In this document: piece after piece, positions 12,098 to 60,221 of the stretch
Layout: every line of letters starts with the position of its first letter
Numbering within the stretch: position 1 is the first letter of the stretch
From: an uncultured virus (IMG/VR IMGVR_UViG_3300033149_002227)
Taxonomy: Duplodnaviria > Heunggongvirae > Uroviricota > Caudoviricetes
IMG/VR virus record: IMGVR_UViG_3300033149_002227
Span: 1-64,000 of that record
Reading direction: 5' to 3' (one strand)
DNA: 64,000 nt
Translations under genes and position numbers: made by a program
Notes under the pieces: model-generated
The model's database searches: none
Seen by the model: only the letters and a program-made list of their open reading frames with translations
What the model was told of the DNA's origin: nothing

Positions 12098-13078
12098 TTA
12101 ATCGTGGAACAGGTCGGATACTGCTATTCCTTTTTCTGATGCCAACCGGTGAAGCTCGTGATCCATCTTACTCATGGCCTCGATTCGTACTTGCCGAATT
12201 CGTTCCTTAGAAACACTGAACTCCACACCGAGATTATCAAGCGTTCGCTGATTGTCCTTATCCATTAGGATTTGGGCAACGAATACTGTCTTCTCTCGAT
12301 GTGTGAGAACTCGCATGGCTTCACTCACAAGGCTTTTATGGAAGTCAACTTCACTATCAGCTATTATGGTCTCTTCAACACCCACACCAGCATCCTCAAG
12401 GGTATCACCGAGCGTGGGACGCCCACCATGCTGAAAATCGGATTCACCCGTGGTAACAGGGTCATCCATTGATTCGTAAGGCTTTTGGAACATCTGAAAC
12501 ATCATCGTCACATCGGTTTCGTCCAGACAATGGCCTTCAGCTAATTCTTCGATAATTTTGGGGGTCATCAGGAAAGAGCCTTTACTCTGAAGCTCGATAG
12601 CAATGAGTTTTCTTATGGAATAGAACAGACGCTTCTTGTTGTGGTTCGTGCAAAACTGAACCACGAAGTAGTTTCTCATAATATAACCTTGCATCATTCC
12701 CTTCACGCACACCTTAGCGTATGCGGCAAAGCGCACATCACCGTGTTCTGACGGGGCAAACCTACGAGCGGCTTCCGCGAGGGCAATCAACCCTTCCGAT
12801 AAAAGTTCCTCATCTTCGATTCTATGATTAGACACTTCTTTTATAGAACGACGAATCGCAGGGCTGTATGCCATGAGAATCCGCGTCAAATATAGGTTAT
12901 CATCCCCTCCACTGAACTTCCTGACCTCCGGCTTCAGCGGGTCCATGAAGTCCGAAAACCCCTTGCGATTTGTTGCCCACCATGATTCAAAGAGGTTTCT
13001 CTCCTCTTCGGCAGTCAATAATGGTAGATAACCTTTGACAAATGTTTTTGCGTCGCTGGTCTTGATTGGATCACGCAT
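12098..13078 (-). CDS. rpoH: RpoH (sigma32)-like RNA polymerase sigma factor
   Basis: Region 1.2 LLTAEEE, region 2 EELLSEGLIAL..AARRF...RFAAYA, degenerate RpoH box NKKRLFYSIRK, region 4 TLDNLGVEFSVSKERIRQV. Start MRDP at 13078 has a GGAG RBS. Confidence 0.88.
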   Translation of the reverse strand: MRDPIKTSDAKTFVKGYLPLLTAEEERNLFESWWATNRKGFSDFMDPLKPEVRKFSGGDDNLYLTRILMAYSPAIRRSIKEVSNHRIEDEELLSEGLIALAEAARRFAPSEHGDVRFAAYAKVCVKGMMQGYIMRNYFVVQFCTNHNKKRLFYSIRKLIAIELQSKGSFLMTPKIIEELAEGHCLDETDVTMMFQMFQKPYESMDDPVTTGESDFQHGGRPTLGDTLEDAGVGVEETIIADSEVDFHKSLVSEAMRVLTHREKTVFVAQILMDKDNQRTLDNLGVEFSVSKERIRQVRIEAMSKMDHELHRLASEKGIAVSDLFHD

Positions 13079-13127
13079 TTTTCTTCTCCAGTTCTTAATG
13101 TTTGTTTTTCCATGACGGATTGGATGG

Positions 13128-13133
13128 TAAATA
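13128..13133 (+). promoter_or_regulatory. late promoter TAAATA for gp25/gp6
   Basis: GTAAATA about 70 bp upstream of the gp25 start. Confidence 0.5.
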
Positions 13134-13171
13134 GTCTTCATGCAAGATTAAAAGCATCGAACGACTAAACA

Positions 13172-13201: not shown

Positions 13202-13573
13202 ATGGCTGCACCTCTATATCGCGGTTTTTCAACGGTTGCAAACGACGGCATCGATACACGCCTGTTTGACGTGAACCTTGTTACGCAAGATTTGCTTAAT
13301 CATTTCGGCACCCGCGTAGGCGAGCGTGTCGGACGACCCTCGTTTGGTTCTATTATACATGACTTGCTATTCGACCTCTTTGATACTAGGACTGAGGGTC
13401 TGGTTATTGCAGACGCTCAACGCATTTTCAGTGAAGACCCCCGGGTTGTATCACAGGAAGTCCACGTTGAAATTGACCCCGAAGAGCATCAGATTAGGTT
13501 AGTGGCGACTCTACAAATGGTAGAGTTCGACATGAACATAAATTTCCACGCTATATTCGAGGCTAGAGGCTAA
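13202..13573 (+). CDS. gp25: baseplate wedge subunit / sheath initiator (T4 gp25-like)
   Basis: T.GERVGRPSFGSIIHDLLFD...DPRV motif. Confidence 0.92.
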   Translation: MAAPLYRGFSTVANDGIDTRLFDVNLVTQDLLNHFGTRVGERVGRPSFGSIIHDLLFDLFDTRTEGLVIADAQRIFSEDPRVVSQEVHVEIDPEEHQIRLVATLQMVEFDMNINFHAIFEARG

Positions 13574-16500
13574 TGGGCGTACTACAACGACAGAATACCC
13601 TGTTCGTATCTGAAGACTGGGTTCGCATTTACGAAGCCATACAGAATGTCGATTTTCGTGCTTACGATTTCGACAACTATGTTGCGGCTTTGCTCGACCA
13701 TCTTCGCGATGTATTCCCCGAGGAATTCAACGACTGGATTGCCTCTTCCGAATTTATTATGAAAGTAGAAGTTCTGGCTTGGTTGAGCCAAAACATCTCA
13801 TTCAGAATAGACCTTAACACAAGAGAGAACTTCCTTGCAACTGCTGAACGAAGAGATTCGTTAATTCGTTTAGCTCAAAACGTTTCATATAAGATTTCCC
13901 GTGTTCGTGGTGCGTCTGGACGCGTCCGTATTGAATCTATTAGGACAACCGAATCCCTATTTGATTCCAATAACATCGATCTCCAAGATCGCGAGATTCG
14001 TTGGAACGACCCACGGAACGAAGATTACTTCGAGCAATTCATTATCGTAATGAATGCCGCCTTCACTAACCGGACTCAGTTCGGTCGCCCTTTGACTAGA
14101 GTAACCAGCGGAAATTCCCGAATTGAACAATATGTATTCAATGGACGTGCGCCGTCAAACGGTTCTTACCCATTCACTACATCGATTAACGGTGTTTCTC
14201 TACCGTTTGACATAATCAATGCCATGGTGGATAAGGACACTGGTCGTACTGAAGAACTAGCACCCAATCCTGATAATGCCTACAATACTCTCTACATAGC
14301 AGATGGTAAAGGTCTTTCTTCTAACGGCACCGGATTCTTCCTAGAATTACGCCAAGGAACCATGCAGTTCCAAGAAGAAGAATTTGTACAACCCGAAGTT
14401 GTCCGTATTGTCAACGTCGATACACAGTCCATAAACAATGACGATTTCTTTGTTGAACAATTGGACGCACAGGGTAGTGTTGAAGTAATATGGGACCAAG
14501 TCGATACTATCTTTGGCGAAAGTGTATCATTCCTACCGACAGACCGTTCTGATTTTATTGATGAAGGGGAAGACACAACAGGTAATCAAGCTACAGGTAA
14601 TGCACGCACCGTTTACGAACTAGACACACTAGAAAACGACCGAGTCCGCGTCCGCTTCGGTGATGGTTCTTACGGTGAAATTCCACTGGGTCGATTCCGC
14701 TTTTGGTATCGTACCAGTAACCCACAGCCTCAGTTGGTAACACCATCAGACATCGGCGAGCAAACCTTCACGCTTCCGTATGAATCCGGTGGTACCATTT
14801 ACTTCCTGACTATTACGATATCACTGAAAGAAGATATCGGAAATGCTGCGGGGTCAGAGACAAACTTTTCTATCAGAACGCGAGCCAATCAGGTTTACTA
14901 CGCACAGAATCGAATGATTACTGGTCGTGACTACAACGCGTTCTTCCTTCGTGATACTGCTATCCGAAAGGTTAAGTCAGTCAACCGTACCTTCTCTGGT
15001 CAGTCAAGATTCGCGAAGCTACATGACCCGACAGGACTTTATGAGAATTTGAAAATCGTTGCCGAAGATGGACGCTTCTATCAGGAGCGCGTCACGGGCG
15101 TGAACTTTGCATCTGCGGATACCACAATCTTATCGAATCCATTATTGATTCAGAATGTGATTGAGCCCCAAATCGAAGAAGCCAACAAAGAACAATTGTA
15201 TTTCAATGATTATCCAGAACAATTCTTCCCGACTTCCCATTTCTGGTACGAAGACTCTGTGGTAAATCAGCAATCTCGCGGACGAATCGTCGAGACTCAG
15301 GGTGATACCAATACATCCATCGCCGTTGGTGATGCTACAGTTGCAATACCAGCGAAATATGTGCTGGTGGACTCTGTTTTGCGTTTGGATAATCCTCGTG
15401 GTGTCACGGTACAAGTGGACCGCGTTCCAGACGACACCGGAGCATCTGCTGATAGTATTATTCTAGAAAGAGATACCGTTGATGGTATCCGTATAGTTTC
15501 TGTTTTCCCACCGTTCCGTACCAAATTTACGGAACCTGAGAAGGTATTGATTGAGCAACAGTTGGAACTGAAACTGGATTTTGGTCTTTCATGGGTTCAA
15601 GATACCCAAACATGGATTATTATTCTTTCAGACAATCTAGACAAACAAGAAAGTGGCGGTATGTTCTGCTTGGATGACCAAGGAGATACCAGTGGTTTGA
15701 ACTTAGACCAATCTTGGATGGTGTATCTTGAATTTGTTCCGGGTGGTGACGCCGACGATCAATGGAAAGTTGTTGATCGTGGCATCAGCGAGTTCTTCGA
15801 ATCTGATAGAGAAAATGATTTCTTCTTTGCAGGAAACGAACCCGTAATTGATCCCGAAACCGGTGCAGTGAAAACTGATACCATTCTAATTCTAGAGTCC
15901 AACGAATCTAGGGATAGTCTCCGTCGGCGAAACATTATAAACCTGAGCATTTCTGCTATATTGGAATGTGACGTATATTGTTATAAATTTACTGGAGATG
16001 GTGTAACCACAGGGTTCACCACTTCCGAAAACCCGCTGAGCCCGAACGTCGCGGTAACAGTCGATGAAGTGTTACAGATTAACACCATTGATTTCAATAT
16101 CATTTCTAAGGTATCTGGCGACACCATCGAATTTGTTGTTGCACCGGCAGATGGTGCTGAGATTTTGGTTTGTATTTCCATAAGCAACTCTTTGAAATCC
16201 GTGAAAACTGATGTGTTCATCGACGTGCAGGGTAATGGTCTTCTAGATACATATGATTTGGGAACCGAACCCCCAATGCAATCTGAAAACTTATTCGTAT
16301 TCTTAGACGGTGTATATCAACGACCGTTTGTGGATTTTTCTACTGCAACACTAATCAACGGAAATGCTGCTATTGTATTAGCGTCGCCATTGCCGTCTGG
16401 TGTGAATATGTTTGTATATGGTGTTGGTGGTATTGCTGATGTGCTGTTTGGAAGATTTGATTTCGTTGCTGACGGTGTCCTAACCGATTTCACAGTAGCG

Positions 16501-18153
16501 ATTGGTGAAAATACTGCTGATAGTACATGGGTATGGAATGATGGTATCTATCAAGGGAAGGATGAATACTCAATCGTTACCGCACCAAATGAGACCACCG
16601 TTTCTTTCCCAGTCGCCCCCGGGGCAGGAACAGTCGTCTCCATTTCGGTACAACTAAATCCAGTGTTTGTCAGTAGCGATACCTATGATTTTGGAGCTTC
16701 TGACGGTATACAAACAAATTATGTGTTGACGGACTCAACCAATGTTGTCGCTGATACCACGATGGTATTTCAAGACGGTATTGCTCAGGCCGGTGCGCCA
16801 TGGGCGGTCGTGTCTCCATCATCATGGTCGGCTCCCGGATCAAACAATGTAACGTTTACGGCACCACCCGCACTCGGTGTTAATATAGCCATGATTAATT
16901 GGCCCGGTGGTGTGGGTACAGACCCAACTTCCACACAAGGTCAAACCGGTCTTGGTTTTGGTGGTGGTGATATCACCGACCTTCCAACAGGAACGAATAA
17001 CCTCGGTAACATCTCCGTTCAATCGTTGCTGGTATCATATCTTGGTCAGAATGTACCGCTATACATCGAAGACACACTCAAATCCCCAGACGGATACGTC
17101 AACGCAAATGGCGTTGAAGTCCGTCCGGCTGATGAAGATAATAGTGGTTTCGCAGACAGCCCATTCATATTCAAGGATATTGTTTTGCAGGATGGTTTTA
17201 CCGATCTTGTATTATGGAGAAAGATTGAGGAATTTGGATTCACCGTACTTGATCCAATCAGCCTGACAACCGGTCCGCGAGGAACATACGGTTTGTCTAC
17301 TGGTGGAGATGTTGGGGACGGCACAGCAATCGATAATAGCGGATATACTTCAGGTATTCCAGAACAGGTTGAAACCTCATTACCGGAATCTCAGTTTACC
17401 GTGCAAGAAGGTGACGTTCACTACGACATTGCAACCGAAACATGGTTGGTAGCTGACATCGCTACAACGATTACGTGGGTAGCCGCAGCCGACCAAACCG
17501 CATTCAAGGTTTTGATTGGTCGTAGTAATTTGAAATTCATGTGGTTGCATTATGCACCCGATGCTTACCGTATTGACCCATCAGTATCGAATGTCATGGA
17601 TATCTATATCCTAACAGCGACATACGATGACGCGTTCAGAACAGCACTGGATAATAATACCCCAACAGAAGATTTGCCGGATGCACCAACATCAGAGTCA
17701 CTGCGAATCGACTTCGCCGACTTCGATGACTTTAAGGCGATGAGTGATGCGATGATTTATCATTCTGCGCGTTACAAGATTTTGTTTGGTGAACAGGCAA
17801 TAACCGAACTGCAAGCTACGTTCAAGGTTGTTCAATCTGAAGGCTCGTTGCTCAGTGAGAATGATTTGAAACTGCGAATTCTTGACGCGATTGATACCTA
17901 TTTTGGTGTTGATAACTGGGATTTCGGCGAAGTGTTCTACATGACGGAATTGTTGGCGTTTATCCATCAGGAATTGGCACCAAATATCCAGACCGTAGTA
18001 GCAGTACCGAATTCAGACACAGAATCGTTTGGGCGGTTGTTCCAGATTCGTTCTGAACCGGATGAGCTTTTCATCTCTGCTACCAGCGCCGATGACATTG
18101 AAGTTGTTAACTCGTTCACTGACGAAGAACTCCGAATCGGTATCCTCTCTTAA
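13573..18153 (+). CDS. gp6: baseplate wedge subunit (T4 gp6-like), extended with repeated beta modules
   Basis: DFDNY...ENFLATAERRDSLIRLA, VRFGDGSYGEIP, AQNRMITGRDY motifs. Confidence 0.9.
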   Translation: MGVLQRQNTLFVSEDWVRIYEAIQNVDFRAYDFDNYVAALLDHLRDVFPEEFNDWIASSEFIMKVEVLAWLSQNISFRIDLNTRENFLATAERRDSLIRLAQNVSYKISRVRGASGRVRIESIRTTESLFDSNNIDLQDREIRWNDPRNEDYFEQFIIVMNAAFTNRTQFGRPLTRVTSGNSRIEQYVFNGRAPSNGSYPFTTSINGVSLPFDIINAMVDKDTGRTEELAPNPDNAYNTLYIADGKGLSSNGTGFFLELRQGTMQFQEEEFVQPEVVRIVNVDTQSINNDDFFVEQLDAQGSVEVIWDQVDTIFGESVSFLPTDRSDFIDEGEDTTGNQATGNARTVYELDTLENDRVRVRFGDGSYGEIPLGRFRFWYRTSNPQPQLVTPSDIGEQTFTLPYESGGTIYFLTITISLKEDIGNAAGSETNFSIRTRANQVYYAQNRMITGRDYNAFFLRDTAIRKVKSVNRTFSGQSRFAKLHDPTGLYENLKIVAEDGRFYQERVTGVNFASADTTILSNPLLIQNVIEPQIEEANKEQLYFNDYPEQFFPTSHFWYEDSVVNQQSRGRIVETQGDTNTSIAVGDATVAIPAKYVLVDSVLRLDNPRGVTVQVDRVPDDTGASADSIILERDTVDGIRIVSVFPPFRTKFTEPEKVLIEQQLELKLDFGLSWVQDTQTWIIILSDNLDKQESGGMFCLDDQGDTSGLNLDQSWMVYLEFVPGGDADDQWKVVDRGISEFFESDRENDFFFAGNEPVIDPETGAVKTDTILILESNESRDSLRRRNIINLSISAILECDVYCYKFTGDGVTTGFTTSENPLSPNVAVTVDEVLQINTIDFNIISKVSGDTIEFVVAPADGAEILVCISISNSLKSVKTDVFIDVQGNGLLDTYDLGTEPPMQSENLFVFLDGVYQRPFVDFSTATLINGNAAIVLASPLPSGVNMFVYGVGGIADVLFGRFDFVADGVLTDFTVAIGENTADSTWVWNDGIYQGKDEYSIVTAPNETTVSFPVAPGAGTVVSISVQLNPVFVSSDTYDFGASDGIQTNYVLTDSTNVVADTTMVFQDGIAQAGAPWAVVSPSSWSAPGSNNVTFTAPPALGVNIAMINWPGGVGTDPTSTQGQTGLGFGGGDITDLPTGTNNLGNISVQSLLVSYLGQNVPLYIEDTLKSPDGYVNANGVEVRPADEDNSGFADSPFIFKDIVLQDGFTDLVLWRKIEEFGFTVLDPISLTTGPRGTYGLSTGGDVGDGTAIDNSGYTSGIPEQVETSLPESQFTVQEGDVHYDIATETWLVADIATTITWVAAADQTAFKVLIGRSNLKFMWLHYAPDAYRIDPSVSNVMDIYILTATYDDAFRTALDNNTPTEDLPDAPTSESLRIDFADFDDFKAMSDAMIYHSARYKILFGEQAITELQATFKVVQSEGSLLSENDLKLRILDAIDTYFGVDNWDFGEVFYMTELLAFIHQELAPNIQTVVAVPNSDTESFGRLFQIRSEPDELFISATSADDIEVVNSFTDEELRIGILS

Positions 18154-18572
18154 CGTTCAAATGTACGCTTACGTTTACCACCCTTTTCACAAGGGTGGTG
18201 TCCGTATTTGTAAAAGTATTTCTTTGCATGGACGAACTTACCGTTTACCCAGAATCCGAACTTGCGTTTCTCTGGTCCACACAAACAGATTGTCCAGCAT
18301 GGTTCGTCTACAACGACGGTGTGGCGATGAAGTGCGGGCCAGTATGCGAGAGACCACCGAGAGCGAATTTTGGAACCTTTGGGACTAACGTCAGTATAGC
18401 TACCAGAAATTACCCAAGTGTAGAACCACCAAGCGTGGTCGTGCATGTAGAGGTCATCATCAGACTTAAACCAATGATGTAGGCGGATGGAGAAGTAGTG
18501 AAAATCAAGAACCCAACGCTCCATGTAGGGGCATTCGGTCAAACCAAGTTGTTCTTTCTAAGTAAATTTCAT
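18150..18572 (-). CDS. cupin-like His-rich protein; in-frame TAG at codon 5 if the ATG at 18572 is used
   Basis: RLHHWFKSDDDLYMHDHAWWF...ISGSY...HRHTV cupin-type motifs. GGAG RBS, then ATG AAA TTT ACT TAG AAA GAA..., in frame with the track ORF (TTG 18542). Confidence 0.7.
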
Positions 18573-18589
18573 CTCTGTTCTCCAGAAAG

Positions 18590-18801
18590 TGGGTACCCGG
18601 GGATGGATTCAAACCACCGACACACGCCATGTACTCCAGACTTTTAACTCAGTTCATTCCGATATCCGCTTGGCTGTTCCCCCCGTCCGCGTGACGGGTT
18701 CCATTCCCCTTGCTTCAATCGACTTCATTTAGTATAGACAGGTTTCGTGATCCTTCCGCCTGTCATCTGGGGCGCTGCTCTGTCAACTGAGCTACCCGGG
18801 T
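18590..18801 (-). tRNA. tRNA-like gene (Val-like body, TAC in register) with a 135-nt insertion in the anticodon loop
   Basis: Acceptor ACCCGGG/CCCGGGT-A(CCCA), D arm GCTC-AGTTGACA-GAGC, anticodon stem GCGCC/GGCGT, variable GTGTC, T arm GGTGG-TTTGAAT-CCATC. The loop is 142 nt rather than 7. Confidence 0.85.
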
Positions 18802-18821
18802 ATAAAATCGAATATGGATTA

Positions 18822-18850
18822 ACTATAGTACTGGTCTAAACCAGTGTCAA
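18822..18850 (-). promoter_or_regulatory. sigma70-type promoter TTGACA-N17-TATAGT driving the tRNA-like gene
   Basis: Near-consensus; spacer carries the inverted repeat ACTGGT-TTAG-ACCAGT. Confidence 0.85.
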
Positions 18851-19702: not shown

Positions 19703-22700
19703 ATGGCTAAAGAACGCAGAGCCTTTACAAATTACCCAGAAGGTAGTCAGACACGGCAAAACAACCAAGAGACATTCATTGCGGATGATCCCTCGTTTGA
19801 GCCCGAACAGGCTAATTTCCTTAATGGATTCATAGGTGACCTCACTAACCTCACTGCTGAGGATTTAGAACGTACTCCGCCGATCCTAGAAGGTTCCGCA
19901 GAACGGCAGAAGTATCAACTCGCTGTCGGCTCTACGTTCATCGATCCTGACACCCAAGAACGGGAGAGCGTTGCGTCCTACACCGATTTGGTGAACCAGA
20001 TTGATTCTAATGGTGGTGATGTTTCAGACCCCAACAGAATCTTCGCCGTGGATTTCTACGCTTGGACTCCACCAATTGATTACGACAAGCACATCAATTT
20101 CTCACGTTATTTGTGGATTGGTACTGGTACAGCCAATGTACAGGGTGAATACGTCACCAAAGAACAATCTCATTCCAAGACCGTAATACATCATTGGGAC
20201 GGAGCCACACTAACTCCAAATGCAGCACTCATCTTCAATGGACTTCCGACTGTTATGGCGGCTGGTACCTATGTGGAAGATGCCAGCACCACACAGCGAT
20301 TGGTTTATCTTTCCGATGGTGCCACATGGCAGCTTTTGAATTTGGAAGTAGTCTCGGACGTACCTACCGACTTTTCGGAAGTGGTCACGCCAACCTATTT
20401 CTACGTAGCCCGCACGGGTCCAGATTACCAACGTCCGATTGTATGGAAATACAGCGGTGGGGCTGGCCGATGGATTCCTCTCCCTGTTGTTATAAACAAT
20501 TCGCTGCCGGAATTCCCACGGGAGAATATGATTTGGGAAGATAGCCGTCTTGCGGGCGAGCGCGTACTGAAGTTCTTCGACAGCGGTGCATACCAGATAT
20601 TGACGTACACCGCAGCGGGTGGTCCTCCCGGAACCGCAGGAACCGATGGCGAATACATTTATGATACCCGAGAATTTGAGTCGCTGACCGATACATGGAC
20701 AACGGAGAACTGGTGGAGACATCAGGAAGACTTATCTCCCATAGATCGTGCAGCCACCGATAACGAAGACCAAGCCATCCGTCCTATCATTGAATTCTGG
20801 GACGGTATCGAGGGCATCGTTGGTGATACTAGGGATTACCGAAACGATAGTCCTGTATACAAGAAATATGCAATCGACCAGTCATCCCTCGACGGGTTTG
20901 ATACTGGCGAAGAAACCACGATATTCGAATACACACGTAGTGTTACTGGACAGGATGATCCCGTTTTGGGATTCCCCCTTACCTTCAACAATACTGGTGA
21001 ATTTCTATTCGGGCTCACTTTGGAATCTGATACAACTACGGTTATCGGGTACCATTACTTTTTGGACACAAACACCGGACTGCTACATGGCATATGGCAT
21101 AAGGCTGATGAATTGACCGAACAGGCAGTTGATGCTAACGGGTTGTACGATGTTCCTGTTGGCATGTCGGCGAACCCAGACCATGAAATATTGGTATCTG
21201 CGTCGCGTTCACGCATGCTCCGACACATGACAGGTGTCATAGGGGCTCAGGACGGCTTTGCAGGCTCGACGACGGGTCAGAACTCATACAGATGGACTGA
21301 CCGTAGTCCGACCCTCGGAGCGTCTATAATCGACGCTGAGGAGACCCTGCTGCGTACCACGGCTACGTTACAGGATGCTAATTTGGATTTCCCTGATGCA
21401 ATCCGTCGAATGGCTAAAGATTACAATAAGGTTCTGTTCCGGTTCACCAACAAGATGAATCAACTGTGGGATAATTTATCGTTTACCAATGGTAACGGTT
21501 CTTTGTACCCGGGACTAACTGCTACTGAAGCCTGTGACGCAGTGTTGACTTCTATCTTTATGGGTAGAACGGAAGATTTCCCATACTACAATTCTGAGAT
21601 GGGGACATTCCTAGAAACATTGGTTACTACCGGTACAGCGACGAATATTGATCCAAACCCACGACCAATTTATATTCCCCCATCACCACCGCGTGTTGGC
21701 GCAGCACCAGTATACGAACCCCGTTCATATGAACAACGGGACGGACAAACGGTGCTTATTGGGCATGAAGGGACGGTCATTCCTACATTCACGGATGAGC
21801 GTGATTTGATATGGCTGGAATTTCAGAACCGATTCTTCGGTGCAACACCCGATACGTTTAAGGTAGAAAGTGCGACCTACTCTTCGCGATTCAACGAAGC
21901 TGGAATCACATTATCTGACCATTACGGAAATTATGAACCCGACACGTCCATCCTACCGGTTGAAGATGTGGTTGAGGATTTCAATGCAATCGCCGGACCG
22001 GCAGACGGCTTACGAGTCTTCTCAACTAACACAGCCGTGTTCGCATTATTCAGTGCCGGTCAGTGGTTGACACGACCAGCAATAGTAGATGACATATTTT
22101 TAAACAATGGGGATGGTGAATATTACATTTTCAACGGAGTCGGTACATTTTCCATCGACAGTTGGAATCGACCATTTGCATTTGAGTACACAACTAATGA
22201 ATTCAGACAAATCATTCGTCGCGATTTTGAACGCTTCATCGTCTTCCGTGAAAACGATTTCAGTGAGAATACCACATTCGATGATTCCGATCCCTTCACT
22301 TGGAACTATCGTTCAGCAGGTGTCGAAGGGCATTATGTCGGAATCTACTCACGGGTTTACAACTCTTACCGGCCTCACAGTGCGCCTTGGGAAGTCGTGG
22401 GCTATAGTGTCGAGCCCGCGTGGTGGCGTACTAGCTACGTGCCCGATAGCACTGCTTCCGATGGATCGCCAAGATATGGAAGCGCTAATTCGATGTGGAC
22501 GGATTTCGCGGCTGGCATTGTTGATCATCCTGCGGGGTCGATCCAAAACGACCAATTTATAATGGCTGGACCGGTTCCGGTTGATGCGGTTGGTGAGTTA
22601 CTAGACCCAATCGCTGCCGGAGTTGTGGATAACGCTAAGCTGGATCAGCAACGAATTGACGATATTTGGATATTCGGCGACGGTGCTTTTATTGAGCAGG

Positions 22701-25700
22701 AATTCCTCAACAGTTCCTACTTCTCCTATTCGATAGCCCTTGCTGGTTACTTGATGAAGAATGGTCAGTGGACTGATTCCTTATGGGTATCCAATCGGGT
22801 TCCGATTGGTCAAACAGGCACCTACCCAATATTCAACAATCCTCACATTGTTAACGGGGACACACTCACACGACCAGCTATCAGTTCTCGCCCAATTCAT
22901 CTCGAAATAATCGATGGTGTTACCCAAGTAAACCTTGGTGTTCATGCGTGGATATCTGAAAAAGTCAATGTCGAAGGTGGTAGTCCCACTACGGGTTTCG
23001 CACGGATTGTAAAAAACACCTCTCCCGCTCTTATGTGGAAATGTGCGGGATACATCAACGAAGCACGAACAATTATATCGACCCTATCGCGTGCGGAAAT
23101 TCCGTTCAGTGACGTGCATGTTATTCTGCACAAATCTCAACCTATATCACAAAACTTCACCTCTGGTGTTTTGGTCGCACGAGAAGAAACTGGTGTTGGC
23201 TACCGTGTATTCGGATTTGATCCATTTGATCCATTCTTCACCATCGAACGTTCTACCATTCCGACATCCGGTGGTCAGGTGCTTCTCGCGCAAGACTTCA
23301 CCGTCGTGTACACGGATAATGACGACCCCAATATTACTGGTGGTTCTGTATTCCCAAATAAGACACTTCAGCACACATTTGAAGTTACGGATTTCAGACT
23401 CCCATCCAAATCCACAATTAAGAACACTGCGGTGCTTGCGGTTTTGGTTAACGGCTCGCGAATGAAGTCTCAGCACATAACAGTGGACAATACGAATAAC
23501 ACCGTAACCATCGAAGACCTCGTAGACCTCATAGAAGGAGATGCGATTGTAGTTCAGGTTTTGACCACACAGTCTGATACATCTGCGCAAATACGACAGT
23601 TTGTCGTTAACGGTGTGACCTTCCCATACTTTGCATCTGGTAGTGGTGAATATGATCGCATTGAGTACGGACGCTATTTCGAAACCTCCACTGAAGTTAT
23701 CAACTTCATGCTTGGTTACGGACGCTTCTTGGTAGCACAGGGTTGGATTTTCGATACACTCTCCGAAGGTGGTGCTACTCGTGATTGGATGCTTGGTGCA
23801 CAAAGATTTGCCCGATGGGTTTTGGATGTCGAAAGTGTTTGGAACAGAAATCCAAAAACAGACATTCTCGACGAAGGAACGTTCTATTACAGCCCAATCA
23901 TGAATGAGGCTAACTTCGTTTCACCATTTGGTCAGACTACTAGCGTAGAAACCATCGAGAACGGTGCATATGGCATTCTTAACCGAAACGCCGAACCCAT
24001 CAAGTCTGATGGAACATTAGTATCCCGAATCGATGACCGCATCGAAGTGACCCGTACCGATATAACCGATGACCAAACCGAAATATTCGGATTACGTGTT
24101 AATCTCATTGAAGCTGAACATGTTGTGGTATTCTCCAACATCACTCGATTCAATGATGTTATCTATGACCCTATTAGTGGTCTGGCACAACGTACATTGG
24201 TGGTTGACTCGTACCGCACATTGAACTGGCAAGGACGACTGGAAGCTGATGGTTATATTCTGAGTGGTGGTTCTATTCTGCCAAACTTTGAAAAGCAAGC
24301 ATTCGATTTTACCAGATTCTATGACCGTTTCAATACTGTTGATGACCCGACGAAGCGAGAGCTTGCCCGTGACCTATATGGTTACGTTCCGGCAAATCAG
24401 TCACGTTCGGTAACAACTGGAAACCGTACCCCGAACATTGAGCGTCGTGTTACTTCCGATAGTTCACAATACATGATACCTGTTGGAGCAGCCGACCGCT
24501 CGCGCTTTGATTATTATCGCGGAATGGTTCAAGCCAAAGGTACGAACCGTGCCATCTACGCGTTTACACGTGGTAGCACAATTGGCCGTGATAAATTCAC
24601 CATCAATGAAGATTGGGCGTGGAAGATTGGTCCTCCAGAATTTGGTGACACTCGCAGAGAAGTAATCCGCCTTAATGTGTCTTCTTTGGACTTCCGTGAC
24701 GAAGCTCAGGTCGTAAACTTTGGTGATCCAATTGACACCCGCAACAACACTATTGAGGTGCTGGACTTTGACCGTACCGATCCTGATAATAATCCTAGAT
24801 GGATCGTGCCACCGTCGGAATGCGAAACAGAAGACTCTTGTAATTTGAAATTCCCTATTGACAGAGATACGGGATTGATTGATGTTGACCAGTACGCTTA
24901 CTACGCCAAACTGTATGATATACCGAATAATATCAACATATTAAATCACGTTCAATACGATCCTCAATTGGAGAAGTTCGATACCGGCGCTACATGCTTC
25001 TTGGACTATAGAGTTGACAATGATCCAGCACGATACAATGCTGGACCGGGCGCTTCGTTCTCGAACGACCGATGTTGGAGAGAGCCCCAAGTTGGTTCCT
25101 TATGGTGGAACCCTCTCAGGAAGTTGTACATTCCATATCGCGACTTATTGCCTGAATACGAATCCGCTGCTAAGTTCTGGGGAGACCCACTGTATTACAA
25201 GTCTACCATCGAACGGCCAGATGATGACGACCGAACAGTCATCACCACGTATGATTACTTGGACATCACCCGCATCACACCGGTACCCCATGGCATAACC
25301 ATCGGTGATACTATAGTTGTGTCAATTCAAAAATGCACACAGTCGGAGTACAATCTGACAAATGTTGAAGTGACAGCAACGTCAACAACCGAACTTGAGT
25401 TTGAAATAGAGTCAAATCCAGATACTCCTGCTACGGGTGATCCTGAAGTAGTATTCGGTCACATCGACATATATGAGTGGGTGGAATCTCCCGTTCTTCC
25501 ATCTGAATGGGAAGAATACGTGGAGGGACTGAATGACCCGAATCATCCTAATGGTACTCCGCTGAATGTGGACGACCCATCGTTTGTAGAAATCACTACC
25601 CTTACCACTGGTAACGCACAGACCACTCTTTACTATTTCTGGGTTCTGAACAGCACCGGGGACAACCCAAGAGGCAAAGACCTGACTGCTTTCCAAATTT

Positions 25701-41363: not shown

Positions 41364-41376
41364 CAGGAGATAAGCA

Positions 41377-42486: not shown

Positions 42487-42488
42487 TC

Positions 42489-43175
42489 ATGTATGACATT
42501 GTATTTCTATCATACAATGAACCGAATGCAGCAGAGCACTGGGAATTAGTTAAAAGCCGATTCCCACGTGCTCGGCACGTTTCTGGTATAAAAGGAATTC
42601 CAAACGCTCATCGCACTGCTGCCGAGCGATGCAAGACCCGATATTTCTGGGTCATCGATGCAGACAATATCGTCCATCCTGATTTTGACTTTTCGTTTCG
42701 TTGGCGTCGTTCCGATGAGCGACAAGACCGCGTAGCCGTTTGGAAAGCAAGAAACAATGTCAACGGACTCGAATATGGTTACGGGGGAATTAAACTATTA
42801 CCGCGCCGAGTCGTATTAGAGATGCCGAATAACATCGTTGATTTCACCACCAGTATTAGCGATCACTTCTTTCCCATGGGTGAAGTCGCATCAACCACGG
42901 TAATTAATTCATCGCCCTTCGAAGCATGGAAGGCTGGATTTCGCGAATGTGTGAAACTAGCTTCCGGTGCGATCAAATCGAATCACCCAGAGGAAGACGG
43001 ACAACGGGCGGAACAGTGGATGGCAATAACGCTCGATGTTCCAAATGCCAATCAATGTATCGAAGGTGCAAAAGCTGGCTACCGGTATGGTTGGGATAAT
43101 GCGGATGATCCGAAGGCATTGGCTAAGATAAACGATTGGGAGTGGCTACAAGCGAGGTTTACCCGTCATGATTGA
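42489..43175 (+). CDS. glycosyltransferase (paralog of 39001)
   Basis: YDIVFLSYNEP, IDADN, NGLEYGYGGIKL, AGFRECVK. Confidence 0.8.
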   Translation: MYDIVFLSYNEPNAAEHWELVKSRFPRARHVSGIKGIPNAHRTAAERCKTRYFWVIDADNIVHPDFDFSFRWRRSDERQDRVAVWKARNNVNGLEYGYGGIKLLPRRVVLEMPNNIVDFTTSISDHFFPMGEVASTTVINSSPFEAWKAGFRECVKLASGAIKSNHPEEDGQRAEQWMAITLDVPNANQCIEGAKAGYRYGWDNADDPKALAKINDWEWLQARFTRHD

Positions 43176-56153: not shown

Positions 56154-57500
56154 ATGAAAACGATTCCAATAGGACCATCAATAGTGATGATGGTCGGTCC
56201 TTCTGGGGCTGGCAAGAGTACATTGATAGAAAGGCACTTCAACTCGCGTGAAGTCATTTCTACCGATGCTCTGCGCGTGGAATTTACCGGCGACAAGCGT
56301 CGGCAAGATAAGGACGATGAGGTGCTGGCCGAGGTCAGTCGCCGTGTCGAAGCGAAAATTAATGTCGGGCAGCGCGTTGTTATCGACGCCACCCACGTGC
56401 GCGACCAAGATCGTCGCCGCTCACTCGAACTCGGACTGATGCTGGATGTCCCAATAACCTACTTGGTGGTGAACCGGTCGGTTGAATCCAAAATGCAAAA
56501 AGCAGGTTGGAGAAAGGACATTTACGTTAAGAAGCTCACTAGCGGAAAACTTGTTAGCCTCATCGAGGCACACGAAGATACCTTCGTAGCCAACGAACAC
56601 AAAATTCTTGCCGGTGACAGTCAAGGTAAGAAAGTCACGGTTATCGATACTCGCGTGGAAGAGTTCAAAGTCGCCCGCGAACTATCACGGGAAAATCCGG
56701 TTGAACAGTTGATATCGAGTGGTTTCAATCGCGTGCGTGTCGTCGCTGACGTGCACGGAAATCTGGAATCATTTCGTAAGGCTATCGACGTACCCGAGGA
56801 CACCTTCCTGTTGTTTTTGGGAGACCTATTGGACTACGATGTCCGTGGTATCCAGATTGTAGAACGTGTGTACAAAATGGTTCAAGAAGGCCGTGCTATC
56901 ACTCTTCGTGGTAATCACGAACGGAAGATTGCGAACTGGGTTGTCAAGGAGCGTGGTAACGGTTTCGAAGGGAGTATCACTTCCGGCAACGACTTCACTG
57001 TTAATATGGTTAAGGCTATGACGCCAGCGCGTCGTGCTTTGTGGGAACGAAGGTTCCTAGCTCTGGTTGACCTGTCTCCTGATTGGATACAACTGGATCG
57101 GTTTCTATTCGTTCACGGTGCAGCACACCGCTCTATTTGGGATGATACATTATTCCGTGCAGAGGAAGAATCGAAGCGTATGGCCATGGCCATGTTCGGT
57201 GAGTCCACAGGCAAGACCATCGGCGGTTACCCTGAGCGGTTGTACAACTGGGTTGATGATATTCCCACCCGACACACCGCTGTCGTTGGGCATGCCGTAC
57301 TGTCAACCGAGGAGCCATTAACCAAAACCAATGACAAGGGTGGTAAGGCTATTTTCCTTGACACTGGTTCCTCGAAGGACATAGATGACTTCGGTCGCGG
57401 TCCTGCTGTTCGTGGACACCTGTCATGGATGGAACTGAGCATTGGGGCTTTGTCACGCAATGGCAGCTATGTGGTGTTCGATGCATTTGGTCGGGACTGA
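56154..57500 (+). CDS. polynucleotide kinase-phosphatase (Pnkp-like: P-loop kinase plus calcineurin-like phosphoesterase, no ligase module)
   Basis: GPSGAGKST, STDALR, DAT; DVHG, GDLLD, GNHE, VHGA, VGH, LDTG. Confidence 0.88.
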   Translation: MKTIPIGPSIVMMVGPSGAGKSTLIERHFNSREVISTDALRVEFTGDKRRQDKDDEVLAEVSRRVEAKINVGQRVVIDATHVRDQDRRRSLELGLMLDVPITYLVVNRSVESKMQKAGWRKDIYVKKLTSGKLVSLIEAHEDTFVANEHKILAGDSQGKKVTVIDTRVEEFKVARELSRENPVEQLISSGFNRVRVVADVHGNLESFRKAIDVPEDTFLLFLGDLLDYDVRGIQIVERVYKMVQEGRAITLRGNHERKIANWVVKERGNGFEGSITSGNDFTVNMVKAMTPARRALWERRFLALVDLSPDWIQLDRFLFVHGAAHRSIWDDTLFRAEEESKRMAMAMFGESTGKTIGGYPERLYNWVDDIPTRHTAVVGHAVLSTEEPLTKTNDKGGKAIFLDTGSSKDIDDFGRGPAVRGHLSWMELSIGALSRNGSYVVFDAFGRD

Positions 57501-57861: not shown

Positions 57862-59487
57862 ATGCTACGTACAAAATCATCAAGTTGGTTCATTCCATTC
57901 TGCTTTGTCGGAGCGTTGATAGGTATAATTCTCACGACCGGTCACTCTCCTGCCGCCCAACTCCGCTACGACACCAGTTCTCAACTGAATTACGGCGAAC
58001 AATTCCAACGGGTACTCGATGCAATACGTGGCAATAGCGTTAATGCCGAGGCAGTAAAATCAGAGGAAGATTTATTCAATATTGCCGTCGATGCCATTTT
58101 GGAAAAAATTGGTGATAAGCACGGAAGATATTTTTCCGCTGAAGAATACCAACGGTTACAAGGCGACCTTCGACCTGCAAATTATACCGGTGTGGGGATT
58201 CAAATTGCTCCCGGCGCAGGTGGTGCCATTATTCTCAACATATTTGACAATTCTCCATTGCATAACATGGGCGTTAGAGTAGGTGATTTAATCACCGCTG
58301 CTGGTTCTCTGGGTGAACCGATGGTTGAATACGATCCAGAAGACCTGATGGTAATCGTAACCGCAATTAAAGGACGGGCAGGGACGGATGTTATATTAAA
58401 CACCAGACGTGGAACTCGGAACCTTCCGCCTATTACTGTTCCACGAATACAGACTAGAAATCAATACGTGTATATGAAACGTTCCGAGACCGGAGTTCTC
58501 ACAATACGAGTGACACAGTTTTCCGGTTCAGTCATCGGTGATATCAAATCTATGCTATCAGATCGAGGGTGGTTAGGTAGAAACGACGTGCTGGATACGA
58601 GTATTATCAAAGGTGTGGTTTTGGATTTGCGGGGTAATCCCGGTGGTATATTGGGTCAAGCGGTATACGTTAGTGATTTGTTTCTCCCAAAGGACGTATC
58701 AGCAGTTCGCGTCATCGAGCGCCCCGAAGTTGAAGGCGGACCGGCTATGGCGTATAATTACCTAACTGCTGACGAAAGAATGTTCCCTGTTGATATTCCA
58801 CGAGTAATATTGATAAACGGCGGTTCGGCGTCTGCATCGGAAATCGTTGCCGGAGCAGTACAAACACATGCCGAAGGTCTCATCATGGGTATTAAATCCT
58901 ACGGTAAAGGTTCGGTGCAAACTGTCATTGATTTGCCCGGAGGAACCGGCATTAAAACCACCTCGGCTATCTACTTTGCGGGTGGCACCATGGAAATCGA
59001 TGGTATCGGAGTAATGCCTGATGCTGTAGTTCTTCAACCCGACCCTATCGGACTGAGTGCCGACGACAAGAGTTTCAATGGTCACCTTATAAAGATTTCA
59101 ATGGACCCCGAAATGGATCACCAATTGAATGTGGCTCATACTTACATCAATGCATTTATCAGTGGTGAGCATGTATTGGACGTACCGGAATCACGACAGG
59201 CTGCGGAAAACAAAGCACACGGTGCTGAAACCAAACTCATAAACATTTGCGACCAACGGGGACTTCGGGGTTGTCCACCAGTGGATATCACATTATTCGA
59301 AAACATTGATCACGGTTCGTTTTTATCAGATACGGATGCTGCGGGTTGGATGTGTTACCCAGACGAAGGAGAAACCGAGTGGGACGACATGTCATTTCTG
59401 GATGGCTACGGCATAAGTGATTTATTCAGCCTTTCTTTATCGGGCCAAATGTGTCCAAATGACGAAATAACATTTACGTTGGAATAA
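57862..59487 (+). CDS. ctpA: S41 carboxyl-terminal processing protease (CtpA-like) with PDZ domain
   Basis: N-terminal hydrophobic signal/anchor, GVGIQI PDZ, LDLRGNPGG, SASASEI (Ser), SYGKGSVQ (Lys), GVMPD. Confidence 0.92.
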   Translation: MLRTKSSSWFIPFCFVGALIGIILTTGHSPAAQLRYDTSSQLNYGEQFQRVLDAIRGNSVNAEAVKSEEDLFNIAVDAILEKIGDKHGRYFSAEEYQRLQGDLRPANYTGVGIQIAPGAGGAIILNIFDNSPLHNMGVRVGDLITAAGSLGEPMVEYDPEDLMVIVTAIKGRAGTDVILNTRRGTRNLPPITVPRIQTRNQYVYMKRSETGVLTIRVTQFSGSVIGDIKSMLSDRGWLGRNDVLDTSIIKGVVLDLRGNPGGILGQAVYVSDLFLPKDVSAVRVIERPEVEGGPAMAYNYLTADERMFPVDIPRVILINGGSASASEIVAGAVQTHAEGLIMGIKSYGKGSVQTVIDLPGGTGIKTTSAIYFAGGTMEIDGIGVMPDAVVLQPDPIGLSADDKSFNGHLIKISMDPEMDHQLNVAHTYINAFISGEHVLDVPESRQAAENKAHGAETKLINICDQRGLRGCPPVDITLFENIDHGSFLSDTDAAGWMCYPDEGETEWDDMSFLDGYGISDLFSLSLSGQMCPNDEITFTLE

Positions 59488-60221
59488 TGTCGAAGTTCCC
59501 AACAATCAAGACAATCGACGACGTACTGCCGTTCGTCAAGCATCACGAAGAGTTCACCGTGACTGAACATCAATGGGGTATATCAATTGATTACCAGACA
59601 CCAGATGTAACCACGTTCAATACCCCACAGGCGAGAGAATGTCGCGGCATAAAATTCCGCTTGGACGGTAGTCTTCTAGCTCGCCCTTATCACAAGTTCT
59701 TCAATATCGGTGGTTCGCGAATGCGCACTGAAGCATTGATTGCGTCAGGGCGCTTCGACAACAAACACACTATCCTCTATATGCCGCATGGCTCGATGAT
59801 TCACCCAATCGTTCATAATGACACGGTGTTCTTTTGCACCCGCTCGGGGATCACTGACGTAGCTGAGCAAGCACTCAGGTTTGTCACGCCTGTCCACGAC
59901 TCACAGAACGCCGGACCGTGGTGTACGGATTTCTGCTATGATTTGGCAAAATCAAATCTCACAGCAATTTTTGAATGGTGCCCCCAAGTTGAACCCGTTC
60001 AAAAATATCCAGCAAACAGGCTAGTACTGACCGCTATCCGTACAAATCAAACTGGGGAATACCTCAGCTATGACAGCATGCGAGCACTAGCCGGTTCGTA
60101 CTATATTCCTATGATCGGTTCCTTCGATGGCGACTGGACAGACGTTGCGAAAAATGAAAGTTATGTCATTCGGTGGAATGATGGTATGATGGGTAAACTC
60201 AGAAATAATCGCGGAAAATGA
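59487..60221 (+). CDS. T4 Rnl1-like RNA ligase homolog with degenerate active site
   Basis: RECRGIKF...ARPYHKFFN, TRSG, AIFEW, LVLTAIR; motif I reads YMPHGS instead of EKxDGS. Confidence 0.8.
   Translation: MSKFPTIKTIDDVLPFVKHHEEFTVTEHQWGISIDYQTPDVTTFNTPQARECRGIKFRLDGSLLARPYHKFFNIGGSRMRTEALIASGRFDNKHTILYMPHGSMIHPIVHNDTVFFCTRSGITDVAEQALRFVTPVHDSQNAGPWCTDFCYDLAKSNLTAIFEWCPQVEPVQKYPANRLVLTAIRTNQTGEYLSYDSMRALAGSYYIPMIGSFDGDWTDVAKNESYVIRWNDGMMGKLRNNRGK

Follow-up and report, generated by a model that had tools for sequence, protein, structure and literature searches.

A tRNA-like gene with a folded domain in its anticodon loop

The stretch of DNA analysed here, referred to as the window, is the first 64,000 nt of IMG/VR record IMGVR_UViG_3300033149_002227 (74,825 bases in full), and represents some 20% of an uncultured jumbo phage genome; the phage was found in vent and sediment samples. 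The phage is of a bacterial type, with a sigma-70-like gene and promoters to match. On the minus strand, positions 18801-18590 form a tRNA-like gene with a complete cloverleaf body (stems of 7, 4, 5 and 5 bp), in which 142 nt separate the two strands of the anticodon stem. Its parts, from 5' to 3', are as follows.

18771..18801, minus strand: 5' exon, nt 1-31 (acceptor 5' strand, U8 A9, D arm, A26, GCGCC); pairing kept in the homolog described below
18765..18770, minus strand: 5' strand of the closing helix, CCAGAU, running straight on from the anticodon stem; GUAGAU in the homolog
18737..18764, minus strand: insert hairpin Pb, GACAGG, 16-nt loop, CCUGUC, from predicted folds; sequence not kept in the homolog
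18647..18733, minus strand: insert long arm Pc, an interrupted rod, from predicted folds
18636..18641, minus strand: 3' strand of the closing helix, GUCUGG, from folds and homolog comparison
18629..18635, minus strand: seven unpaired bases, AGUACAU, between the closing helix 3' strand and GGCGU, with UAC in anticodon register, A37 and U38
18594..18628, minus strand: 3' exon (GGCGU, GUGUC, T arm, acceptor 3' strand, A73); 35 of 38 bases the same in the homolog

The acceptor stem (ACCCGGG/CCCGGGU) is followed by U8 and A9, a D stem (GCUC/GAGC) closing the D loop AGUUGACA, the anticodon stem (GCGCC/GGCGU), a variable loop GUGUC and a T stem (GGUGG/CCAUC) with the T loop UUUGAAU; A73 is followed by CCC instead of CCA. 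Every stem is fully paired, and the tRNA consensus features U8, A14, G18, U54-U55 and A58 are all present. The elbow pair 19-56, normally G19-C56, is the Watson-Crick variant A19-U56 (A19 at window position 18783, U56 at 18611). The anticodon register reads Val (UAC), and the body resembles bacterial tRNA-Phe-type bodies.

The insert measures 135 nt and is placed between nt 31 and 32, leaving AGUACAU on the 3' side. Within it, Pc is predicted to comprise the helices UCGAU/AUCGG, GC/GC and GG/CC, separated by purine-rich internal loops, and an apical hairpin CCCGUC-ACGCG-GACGGG. These details are to be read in the light of fold energies no better than those of shuffled sequences (z of -0.13 for the gene and -1.03 for the insert). 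The layout accords with the first-pass annotation, which had described a complete cloverleaf with a 142-nt anticodon loop, a change of both G19 and C56 that retains their pair, an insert closed on the anticodon stem by CCAGA/TCTGG with AGTACAT to its 3' side, and the hairpins GACAGG/CCTGTC and CCCGTC/GACGGG. The minus-strand reading bears out the first three, extending the closing helix by a sixth pair, U.G, to CCAGAU/GUCUGG, and both hairpins recur in the minimum-free-energy folds.

No tRNA-like module lies within the insert. Its complementarity to the phage's own DNA is confined to 12-14-mers, a size expected by chance, and neither a second copy of it nor significant similarity to the insert of the homolog was found. 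We considered and rejected a repeat or mobile element, there being no second copy and, by inspection, no target-site or loop duplications at the junctions.

Promoter and genomic neighbourhood

18822..18850, minus strand: sigma-70-type promoter TTGACA-17-TATAGT, 11 of 12 matches, about 20 nt upstream of tRNA position 1
18525..18593, minus strand: trailer and 5' UTR, with mean column identity of 93% to the homolog in the aligned trailer stretch
18150..18524, minus strand: cupin-type protein gene, phrog_4786 ('cysteine dioxygenase'), downstream and co-oriented

The promoter stands as first annotated, running from 18850 to 18822, and the homolog has TTGACA-17-CATAAT (also 11/12) in the matching place, the rest of its upstream flank not being alignable. 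The trailer holds a four-codon mini-frame, ATG AAA TTT ACT TAG, from which the homolog differs only in ACA for ACT. The cupin-type protein is 79-80% identical in the homolog contig, where gene order is the same, and its likely start is the ATG at 18524, since the homolog has TTA in place of the TTG at 18542. No terminator is predicted between the tRNA-like gene and the cupin gene. The 74.8-kb record has no second tRNA-like gene, nor have the 103 kb that carry the homolog; a related phage has 55 tRNAs, mostly clustered.

The gene is neither a chance match nor an assembly error

We scanned both strands for split tRNAs under strict settings (7/7 acceptor, 4/4 D and 5/5 T pairs, T loop UUxxA). The record gave one match and 25 first-order Markov random sequences gave none, and chance origin can therefore be dismissed. 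Misassembly, which would have undone the original description, is dismissed because a second IMG/VR contig carries an identical copy of the gene and because DNA contigs from separate studies span both insert junctions; none of the four runs examined was insert-less. Runs of several studies contain a near-identical copy; no RNA run is listed among those with the stretch. A diverged strain variant has three listed changes compatible with the structure, among them G135 to U in an internal loop and A139 to G, by which the pair U84-A139 becomes U.G.

At default thresholds, ARAGORN calls no tRNA at the native gene in the whole 74.8-kb record, either in default or in intron mode (-i0,400); calls at lowered thresholds were obvious noise and were discarded. 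With the insert removed in silico, the program calls a tRNA in 8/8 excisions of each gene, with a Val anticodon whenever at least five of the 3' loop bases are retained. None of the 4,227 families of Rfam 15 reaches its gathering score on the window, and at E up to 10 the gene and the insert of both phages return chance-level rows only (snoRNA and miRNA models, E 0.44-9.9).

Compensatory change in a diverged homolog

The same gene occurs in one diverged, related jumbo-phage contig of 103 kb, where the insert is 168 nt long. Among 27 helix pairs compared between the two genes, 22 are unchanged, one differs on one side, four show compensatory change and none is broken. The elbow covaries as well, A19-U56 in the window gene facing C19-G56 in the homolog. 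The closing helix is shared as NNAGAU/GUCUNN, its outer two pairs compensatory and its inner AGAU/GUCU, including the U.G, unchanged. In the homolog, the bases adjoining the 3' stem strand are CACGU (CAC, G37, U38), with one further U on the 5' side, so that N-A-C-R-U beside the 3' strand of the anticodon stem is common to both genes. The insert interiors cannot be aligned between the two phages, though the exons are about 90% identical. Both inserts are predicted to fold alike: a hairpin on the 5' side and, on the 3' side, a long rod interrupted by purine-rich internal loops meet the base helix at a junction rich in A. The homolog insert likewise has a z of about -1.

The tRNA body is real and, as far as sequence comparison tells, under purifying selection. 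The claim that the gene is selected thus gains the backing of four compensatory changes and one one-sided change with no broken pair among 27, of a covarying 19-56 pair and of a kept promoter, all from one homolog. The covariation is a single comparison of two distinct sequences, the searches having covered viral contigs, one metagenome scan and one genome scan. These yielded no third version of the insert-bearing gene beyond the identical contig and the one diverged homolog. A 601-base region queried against GenBank phages by blastn in distant mode gave no match; the gene is absent from the syntenic spot of the related phages G002 and G003 (57-59% protein identity), and the strict scan found no tRNA with a long insert in G002 (347 kb) or other records.

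The homolog searches also returned ordinary tRNAs and an odd tRNA of unrelated appearance, identical in L008, L009 and L011. Brute-force excision of the L008-type RNA does not discriminate: of 1,490 variants, ARAGORN accepted 530, and their anticodons were of many kinds. A tRNA-Gln from an Eremiobacterota MAG shares its T arm with the window gene.

Excision products and known intron classes

To count as an excision candidate, a product had to have a loop of 7 nt and to keep four or more of the five anticodon-stem pairs. The native loop has 142 nt; a purine is available for position 37. U33 is restored by single excision in 0 of 10 candidates for the window gene and 0 of 15 for the homolog, as had been noted for the window gene, and a cut exactly at the helix base would leave seven loop bases in the window gene but six in the homolog.

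The first-pass annotation had also set the gene apart from group I introns, bulge-helix-bulge introns and tmRNA, and this holds as far as Rfam and inspection reach. Group I (RF00028) gives no Rfam match at E up to 10 for the gene or for the insert alone in either phage, and there is no Rfam match that would place the insert in any known intron family. By inspection, the sole conserved U.G has its G at the insert's 3' end, unlike the U.G of a group I P1, and the downstream hairpins lack a U.G; a terminal G is found at none of the junctions that leave a 7-nt loop. A bulge-helix-bulge (two 3-nt bulges on opposite strands of a 4-bp helix) is not present by inspection, the 5' strand having no bulge in the window gene and one of 1 nt in the homolog, and the 3' strand bulges of 7 and 5 nt, respectively. 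ARAGORN reports no tmRNA; the gene has a D stem, and its 3-70 pair is C-G. A hammerhead-type core was not seen by eye.

Repair enzymes and a possible splicing route

56154..57500, plus strand: Pnkp-like RNA end-healing enzyme, P-loop kinase and metallophosphoesterase (Pfam AAA_33, Metallophos)
59487..60221, plus strand: RNA ligase of the T4 Rnl1 family, 244 aa (PF09511, 2.6e-17)

The PHROG families matched by the Pnkp-like protein include ones named polynucleotide kinase and RNA ligase. The ligase matches T4 RNA ligase 1 (chains 5tt6/2c5u) at E 6e-14 over chain residues of about 41-263; it consists of the nucleotidyl-transferase domain only, without the C-terminal domain of T4 Rnl1. No splicing endonuclease of the EndA/Sen family was seen by Pfam among the 52 window proteins, in a record that holds about a fifth of the genome. 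The chemistry of T4 Pnkp/Rnl1 and of yeast Trl1 joins tRNA halves broken in the anticodon loop.

Our preferred reading, which we hold tentatively, is that the insert is a shape-recognised, protein-spliced intervening sequence in a selectively maintained and putatively transcribed tRNA gene. The sequences show the gene, its selection, the build of the insert, the lack of known intron signatures and the repair genes; excision, the cut sites and the enzymes responsible are what we infer. The first step would be a cut at the foot of the closing helix, made by a phage or host endonuclease; end healing by the phage Pnkp-like kinase/phosphatase and sealing by its Rnl1-like ligase would follow. This would yield a tRNA-Val (UAC in the window gene, CAC in the homolog) whose anticodon loop is unusual in having no U33.

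Inside the insert, change is about as free as in neutral DNA, and nothing but the 6-bp base helix that stacks on the anticodon stem is held. Such a pattern would be expected if proteins read the shape of an intron and excise it, and not if the intron is a ribozyme. The position of the insert in the anticodon loop, where the base helix draws the exon ends together, speaks for splicing, as do the continued conservation of the nearby non-coding trailer, the real body, the 8/8 excisions accepted by ARAGORN, the kept N-A-C-R-U and the presence of the repair enzyme pair. Against it stand the lack of U33, the seven versus six bases left by a cut at the helix base, the missing bulge-helix-bulge, the failure of the Pfam scan to show a splicing endonuclease among the 52 window proteins, fold energies no better than shuffles and covariation drawn from one comparison. 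The ligase, besides being short of the T4 Rnl1 C-terminal domain, lies 37 kb off, and its role may be confined to mending tRNAs that host defences have cut.

Triplets resembling Val anticodons occur in the 5' hairpin loops of the inserts (CAC here, in AUCACGA; UAC in the homolog, in UGUACAC), the reverse of those in the bulges; with only two sequences this reciprocity lies within chance, and we discarded it as evidence.

Alternative readings

Where the original description had left a mimic with an appended domain beside a new small intron type, we lean towards splicing and regard the mimic as possible, if on the unlikely side. The insert would then never be removed, and the RNA would be a non-decoding tRNA look-alike with a variable folded domain in place of an anticodon end. 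Such an RNA, its acceptor/T/D body intact and probably subject to RNase P processing and CCA addition, would serve as decoy, inhibitor or cofactor to a partner that recognises tRNA bodies or Val-type anticodon bases, for example ValRS, a tail-modifying toxin or a defence nuclease of the host that targets tRNA. The decoy roles first put forward, towards anticodon nucleases, synthetases or T-box-like sensors, are speculative. That no cut point restores a canonical loop and that known intron signatures are absent both suit such a molecule, as does the solitary gene with its own promoter in either phage, set beside the 55 tRNAs of their relative. A fast-evolving domain would suit an arms race, and the literature has many examples of tRNA-targeting defences and of counter-tRNAs carried by phages (PMC10264068, PMC12445682). 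A 'CNG' motif of the P2-OLD type (PMC12445682) is not evident by eye in the anticodon stem.

A decoy that works through its body alone would, however, need neither the anticodon stem nor the adjoining NACRU, which are both kept, and the insert interior has no conserved sequence that could be a binding site. The elbow change, first taken as a sign of mimicry, proves weaker than it had seemed. A19/U56 occurs in 2 of the 27 ordinary-length tRNAs that the strict scan finds in the 347-kb phage G002, both of which exceed the Rfam cut-off, so that the variant, shared as it is with ordinary tRNAs, is no argument against decoding.

It is improbable, in our judgement, that the tRNA body is a processing scaffold and the insert itself the functional product, a small structured RNA, linear or circular, that varies in sequence from phage to phage. 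The two inserts are predicted to share one architecture, and 135-168 nt have been retained with no shrinking; that architecture, however, comes from minimum-free-energy predictions on two sequences with z about -1, and the insert shows no sequence conservation, no complementarity to phage DNA beyond chance 12-14-mers and no Rfam family.

We give as little credence to a decaying or selfish insertion, that is, a pseudogene kept by chance or retained only as an RNase P/Z processing signal for the cupin mRNA. The neutral-looking interior of the insert, the impossibility of U33, the absence of the gene at the syntenic spot in G002 and G003, and a co-oriented cupin gene with no predicted terminator in between are all in keeping with decay. 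A decaying gene would nevertheless hardly be expected to show four compensatory changes in its stems, a covarying tertiary pair and not one broken pair under a kept promoter, nor near-identical copies in the runs of several studies with three listed structure-compatible changes in one diverged variant. For a pure processing signal, moreover, the anticodon stem and closing helix would be superfluous.

An unrecognised small self-splicing or self-cleaving ribozyme, whether a reduced group I relative or a new class, is very improbable despite an anticodon-loop position like that of bacterial group I introns and a conserved U.G at the inner end of the base helix, since its core should be conserved yet the interiors are not alignable, Rfam 15 gives only chance-level rows for gene and insert of both phages at E up to 10, the G of the U.G lies at the 3' end of the insert and not in a 5' internal guide, and no usable 3' junction has a terminal G.

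Implications

To our knowledge, self-splicing group I introns are the only tRNA introns of known mechanism in bacteria and their phages, and phage Pnkp/Rnl1 pairs have so far been known to us only for mending tRNAs cut by host defences. If the insert is spliced by protein, one might go further and posit that phages own protein-dependent tRNA splicing, in which an endonuclease would read the shape of a helix on the anticodon stem, Pnkp/Rnl1 would act as the splicing ligase, and the U33-less tRNA-Val produced may be missed by host anticodon nucleases. We consider this wider proposal rather unlikely as it stands.

Unclassifiable tRNA inserts in megaphages, few and unexplained, have been in print since 2019 (PMC6784885). 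The window gene adds a clean example with comparative evidence, its body and 6-bp base helix held by compensatory change while the insert drifts, and it ties the puzzle of phage tRNA inserts to an enzyme pair, Pnkp-like and Rnl1-like, on the same phage fragment. If the insert is never spliced, the gene would be a natural tRNA scaffold with a variable domain, which bears on tRNA-targeting phage defences and on phage counter-measures.

Comparison with known systems

Group I introns occur in the anticodon loops of bacterial and phage tRNAs, as in the Azoarcus pre-tRNA-Ile, whose intron is roughly 205 nt long, and in cyanobacterial tRNA-Leu. The present insert resembles them in lying in the anticodon loop of a bacterial-type tRNA gene as structured RNA with no ORF. 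It departs from them in its length (135-168 nt), in having no conserved core and in showing no pairing of a 5'-exon U with an internal guide.

Archaeal and eukaryal tRNA introns are defined by a bulge-helix-bulge and removed by EndA/Sen and a ligase; their sequence drifts and the boundary helix is kept. A drifting insert with a kept boundary helix is what we see here, together with healing and sealing enzymes of the same chemistry as yeast Trl1. In contrast to those introns, the insert sits at 31/32 and not at 37/38, there is no 5' bulge before the closing helix and the 3' bulge is 5-7 nt, the phage is of bacterial type, and no EndA was seen in the 75-kb record.

Engineered tRNA scaffolds carry cargo in the anticodon arm, and the window gene is like them, and like tRNA mimics generally, in being a tRNA body with a foreign folded domain in place of the anticodon loop. 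Y RNA of the YrlA type is permuted, ending in a Ro-binding stem and not in an acceptor stem. Unlike YrlA, the window gene keeps free acceptor ends and bases in anticodon register, and the Rfam search gave no YrlA match.

A close likeness is to the Lak megaphages, whose tRNA genes carry 'enigmatic' introns not of group I (Devoto et al., 2019; PMC6784885). In that account, as here, the insert lies in the anticodon region of a tRNA gene of a large uncultured phage, was tested against Rfam, and is identical across samples where the same gene occurs. The Lak excision points were inferred from eukaryote-mode tRNAscan and insert-less alleles, and one Lak insert may itself encode a tRNA (PMC6784885); the window gene, compared by description, differs in having no insert-less allele among the four runs examined, no U33-restoring excision and no tRNA module in its insert. 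Likened in this way, by description, it fits the loose Lak-type definition of an unclassifiable insert in a phage tRNA gene.

Structure and setting of the tRNA-like gene

The tRNA-like gene lies on a record of 74,825 bases in IMG/VR, which, with an estimated completeness of about 20%, is a fragment of a jumbo phage; four fifths of the phage genome lie outside it. A related phage, G002 (a 347.5-kb contig, about 90% complete, with 55 tRNAs by ARAGORN), shows 57% protein identity to the window in the giant structural gene adjoining the tRNA-like gene. The gene (18801-18590, minus strand) reads, 5' to 3':

acceptor stem ACCCGGG/CCCGGGU, its 5' strand followed by U8 A9
D stem GCUC/GAGC, with loop AGUUGACA
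A26, then anticodon stem GCGCC / 142 nt / GGCGU
variable loop GUGUC
T stem GGUGG/CCAUC, with loop UUUGAAU
A73, then CCC at the 3' end

The 142-nt stretch opens with CCAGAU, whose partner GUCUGG lies 125 nt further on. Beside this closing helix AGUACAU stays unpaired 3', and 5' there is no unpaired base. The first-pass annotation had described a cloverleaf body with a 142-nt, helix-closed anticodon loop, and each element is present at its place in the sequence; the minimum-free-energy fold of the whole gene recovers the cloverleaf and closing helix along with both hairpins named then (GACAGG/CCUGUC and CCCGUC/GACGGG).

Around the gene, the window also holds the following.

12098-13141 (-): sigma-70-like factor gene
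13573-18153 (+) and 19703-29932 (+): giant ORFs of 1,526 and 3,409 aa, without Pfam match, adjoining baseplate genes (gp25-like, plus lysozyme/VgrG-like at 9276-11816)
18546-18560 (-): four-codon mini-frame ATG AAA TTT ACT TAG, inside the highly conserved trailer; the homolog has ACA for ACT, a synonymous change
39966-53421: modification-type gene cluster, an unusual phage cargo, with two radical-SAM proteins, two GNAT acetyltransferases, two Asp/Asn beta-hydroxylase-like proteins, a sulfotransferase and a fatty-acid desaturase

For the downstream cupin-type ORF, ATG 18524 is a likelier start than the annotated TTG, since the homolog has TTA at the latter.

Chance and artefact

A strict scan for split tRNAs (7/7 acceptor pairs, 4/4 D-stem pairs after U8, at most 500 nt in between, 5/5 T-stem pairs with G53-C61 as the closing pair, and a UUxxA T loop) returned one match on both strands of the 74,825-base record, at the tRNA-like gene, and none in 25 random sequences drawn from a first-order Markov model to match the record in size and composition. 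The native gene receives no call from standard detectors (ARAGORN, including its intron mode, and Rfam), and its fold energy is no better than that of shuffles (z of -0.13 for the gene and -1.03 for the insert). When the insert was removed in silico at eight points, ARAGORN at its default threshold called a tRNA in all eight cases, as Val(UAC) once at least five of the 3' bases were retained.

Misassembly, which had been raised as a possible source of the insert, finds no support here: in DNA runs from four studies, independent contigs span both junctions and no insert-less form was found, and a second IMG/VR contig carries an identical copy of the gene. Run X12 yields a diverged strain variant with three listed changes in the gene, all compatible with the fold: C20 to U in the D loop, G135 to U in an internal loop, and A139 to G, which turns the predicted U84-A139 pair into U.G. 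Gene and promoter together show seven differences over 281 bases in this subsurface run. The flanks of the X12 contig are unlike the window on both sides, around 18572-18581 and 18861; this relative may have the gene in another neighbourhood, or the contig may be wrongly joined at these points.

Comparison with a diverged homolog

A homolog, L004, is found in the corresponding position, again upstream of the cupin-type gene, on a 103-kb contig whose neighbouring proteins are 79-88% identical to those of the window. The exons are about 90% identical. Among 27 helix pairs compared by script, 22 are unchanged, one differs on one side (A1-U72 in the window, G1.U72 in L004), four have both bases replaced yet still pair (28-42 and 31-39 of the anticodon stem, plus the two outermost pairs of the closing helix, CCAGAU/GUCUGG against GUAGAU/GUCUAC), and none is broken. 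The covariation evidence is one pairwise comparison of two distinct sequences and not a statistic; because every substitution at a paired position preserves structure, we take selection to act on the tRNA body, on the anticodon stem and on the insert's base.

The elbow pair also changes on both sides, from A19-U56 to C19-G56, in keeping with the earlier claim that the tertiary 19-56 pair is retained despite the loss of G19 and C56. The proposed promoter, TTGACA-17-TATAGT, likewise holds: an 11/12 sigma-70 match ends 16-20 nt before position 1 in both genes, within upstream sequence that is otherwise not alignable. The earlier interpretation, a selected mimic or a new small intron type, is partly supported: it is upheld as to selection and loses A19-U56 as a sign of mimicry, since ordinary tRNAs share it. 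In G002, A19 with U56 occurs in 2 of the 27 ordinary-length tRNAs that the strict scan detected (Arg-UCU at 178211 and Thr-GGU at 206411, about 62 bits each, above the Rfam cut-off).

Directly before the 3' strand of the anticodon stem, both genes read N-A-C-R-U (UACAU in the window, CACGU in L004), with the valine anticodons UAC and CAC in register. The 5' hairpin loop of the insert is AUCACGA in the window (18737-18764, minus strand) and UGUACAC in L004 (about 2252-2304, plus strand), each showing the valine triplet opposite to that of its own 3' bulge (UAC in the window, CAC in L004); this swap may be chance.

Known classes of insert

Group I introns, bulge-helix-bulge introns and tmRNA had been judged not to fit, and we concur. 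For a group I intron there is no Rfam match, no core common to the two versions, no pairing of a 5'-exon U with a guide close by, and no usable junction with a terminal G. For a bulge-helix-bulge intron the geometry is wrong, with zero (window) or one (L004) unpaired base on the 5' strand before the closing helix and a 3'-side bulge of 7 or 5 nt, respectively. The D stem and a C-G pair at 3-70 rule out tmRNA. A DNA transposon or integration scar is rejected on the lack of duplications at the junctions and on the sixth "inverted repeat" pair, a U.G that pairs as RNA only. The statement that no excision point restores U33 also stands: 0 of 10 candidates in the window gene and 0 of 15 in L004 give a 5-bp stem and a 7-nt loop with U33.

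Possible explanations

The inserts measure 135 nt (window) and 168 nt (L004), and their interiors outside the base helix could not be aligned by MAFFT or sensitive BLAST, while the adjoining non-coding trailer, from the tRNA-like gene to the cupin gene, has a mean column identity of 93% over the aligned stretch; the interior therefore drifts about as fast as unconstrained DNA. Because the body is strictly conserved, the exon-joining helix covaries and the interior drifts freely, we tentatively favour an intervening sequence whose shape would be the recognition signal, with cleavage at the foot of the closing helix and sealing by repair enzymes that the phage itself encodes. Two candidate enzymes are encoded in the window:

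56154-57500 (+): protein with P-loop kinase and metallophosphoesterase domains (Pnkp-like); among the PHROG families it matches are some named polynucleotide kinase and RNA ligase
59487-60221 (+): 244-aa ligase of the T4 Rnl1 family, matching the nucleotidyl-transferase domain of T4 RNA ligase 1 and without the C-terminal domain

The two genes flank one for a DUF5658 protein and one for an S41 peptidase. A kinase/phosphatase and an Rnl1-type ligase heal and seal tRNAs broken in the anticodon loop, and in yeast, tRNA splicing by proteins ends with this same chemistry. Here a putative cutting enzyme would recognise the insert by its shape, and the two repair enzymes would join the tRNA halves into a tRNA-Val with a non-canonical loop. 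Against this stand the U33 problem and the unequal remainder after a cut at the helix base, 7 bases in the window and 6 in L004. Odd anticodon loops are part of the repertoire of this phage group, since G002 has two tRNA genes with 6-base, U33-less-looking loops (GUACUA at 64636-64709 and GUUAAA at 178288-178364). The G002 set also includes the amber-suppressor-type anticodon CUA, and 218699-218776 is listed with these unusual tRNAs.

In the main rival, which we consider somewhat less likely, the RNA would stay unspliced and act as a tRNA look-alike with a variable domain, directed, for example, against a tRNA-targeting defence; many such defences are now known (PMC10264068, PMC12445682). It is improbable that the tRNA body is a scaffold releasing the insert as an active RNA. 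The predicted folds of both inserts have in common a base helix, a 5' hairpin, a short U/A junction, an A-rich return strand, and a long, interrupted rod whose internal loops are purine-rich and whose tip is rich in G+C, an outline that, from two sequences with z about -1, is a lead only; no second copy of either insert was found in three phage records. There is similarly little chance of a relic or mere processing signal, set beside the structure-preserving substitutions. An unrecognised ribozyme is very improbable: a conserved body, covarying helix and drifting interior are the look of protein-spliced introns and not of ribozymes, and Rfam (4,227 families, E up to 10) returned nothing beyond chance-level rows for both inserts.

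Comparison with known systems

Other odd tRNA-like genes occur in phages. One of 126 nt (L008:697-822, minus strand; identical in L009 and L011) lies inside the tRNA cluster of another phage, has the same T arm and acceptor end as the window gene, and scores 13.4 bits against RF00005 with no ARAGORN call. It carries two extra hairpins, both with the loop GUUGAUCA containing the palindrome UGAUCA, which could form a kissing pair, and a UCUUC-UACAU similar to the 3' junction of the window gene. On two other viral contigs, L071 has a tRNA-Phe-like 5' part that stops partway through the T stem and may be what remains of an attachment site, and L078 has a tRNA-like gene with a 4-base "anticodon loop" and no ARAGORN call.

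In the literature searched we found no description of a phage tRNA gene that carries at position 31/32 an insert both helix-closed and U33-less. Non-classifiable inserts in phage tRNA genes were reported from Lak megaphages in 2019, in a paper noting that no intron in a phage tRNA had previously been described (PMC6784885). The Lak inserts are like ours in being non-classifiable and in lying within phage tRNA genes. The kind of insert is thus already in print for phage tRNA genes, yet unexplained, and the tRNA-like gene adds a new version of it.
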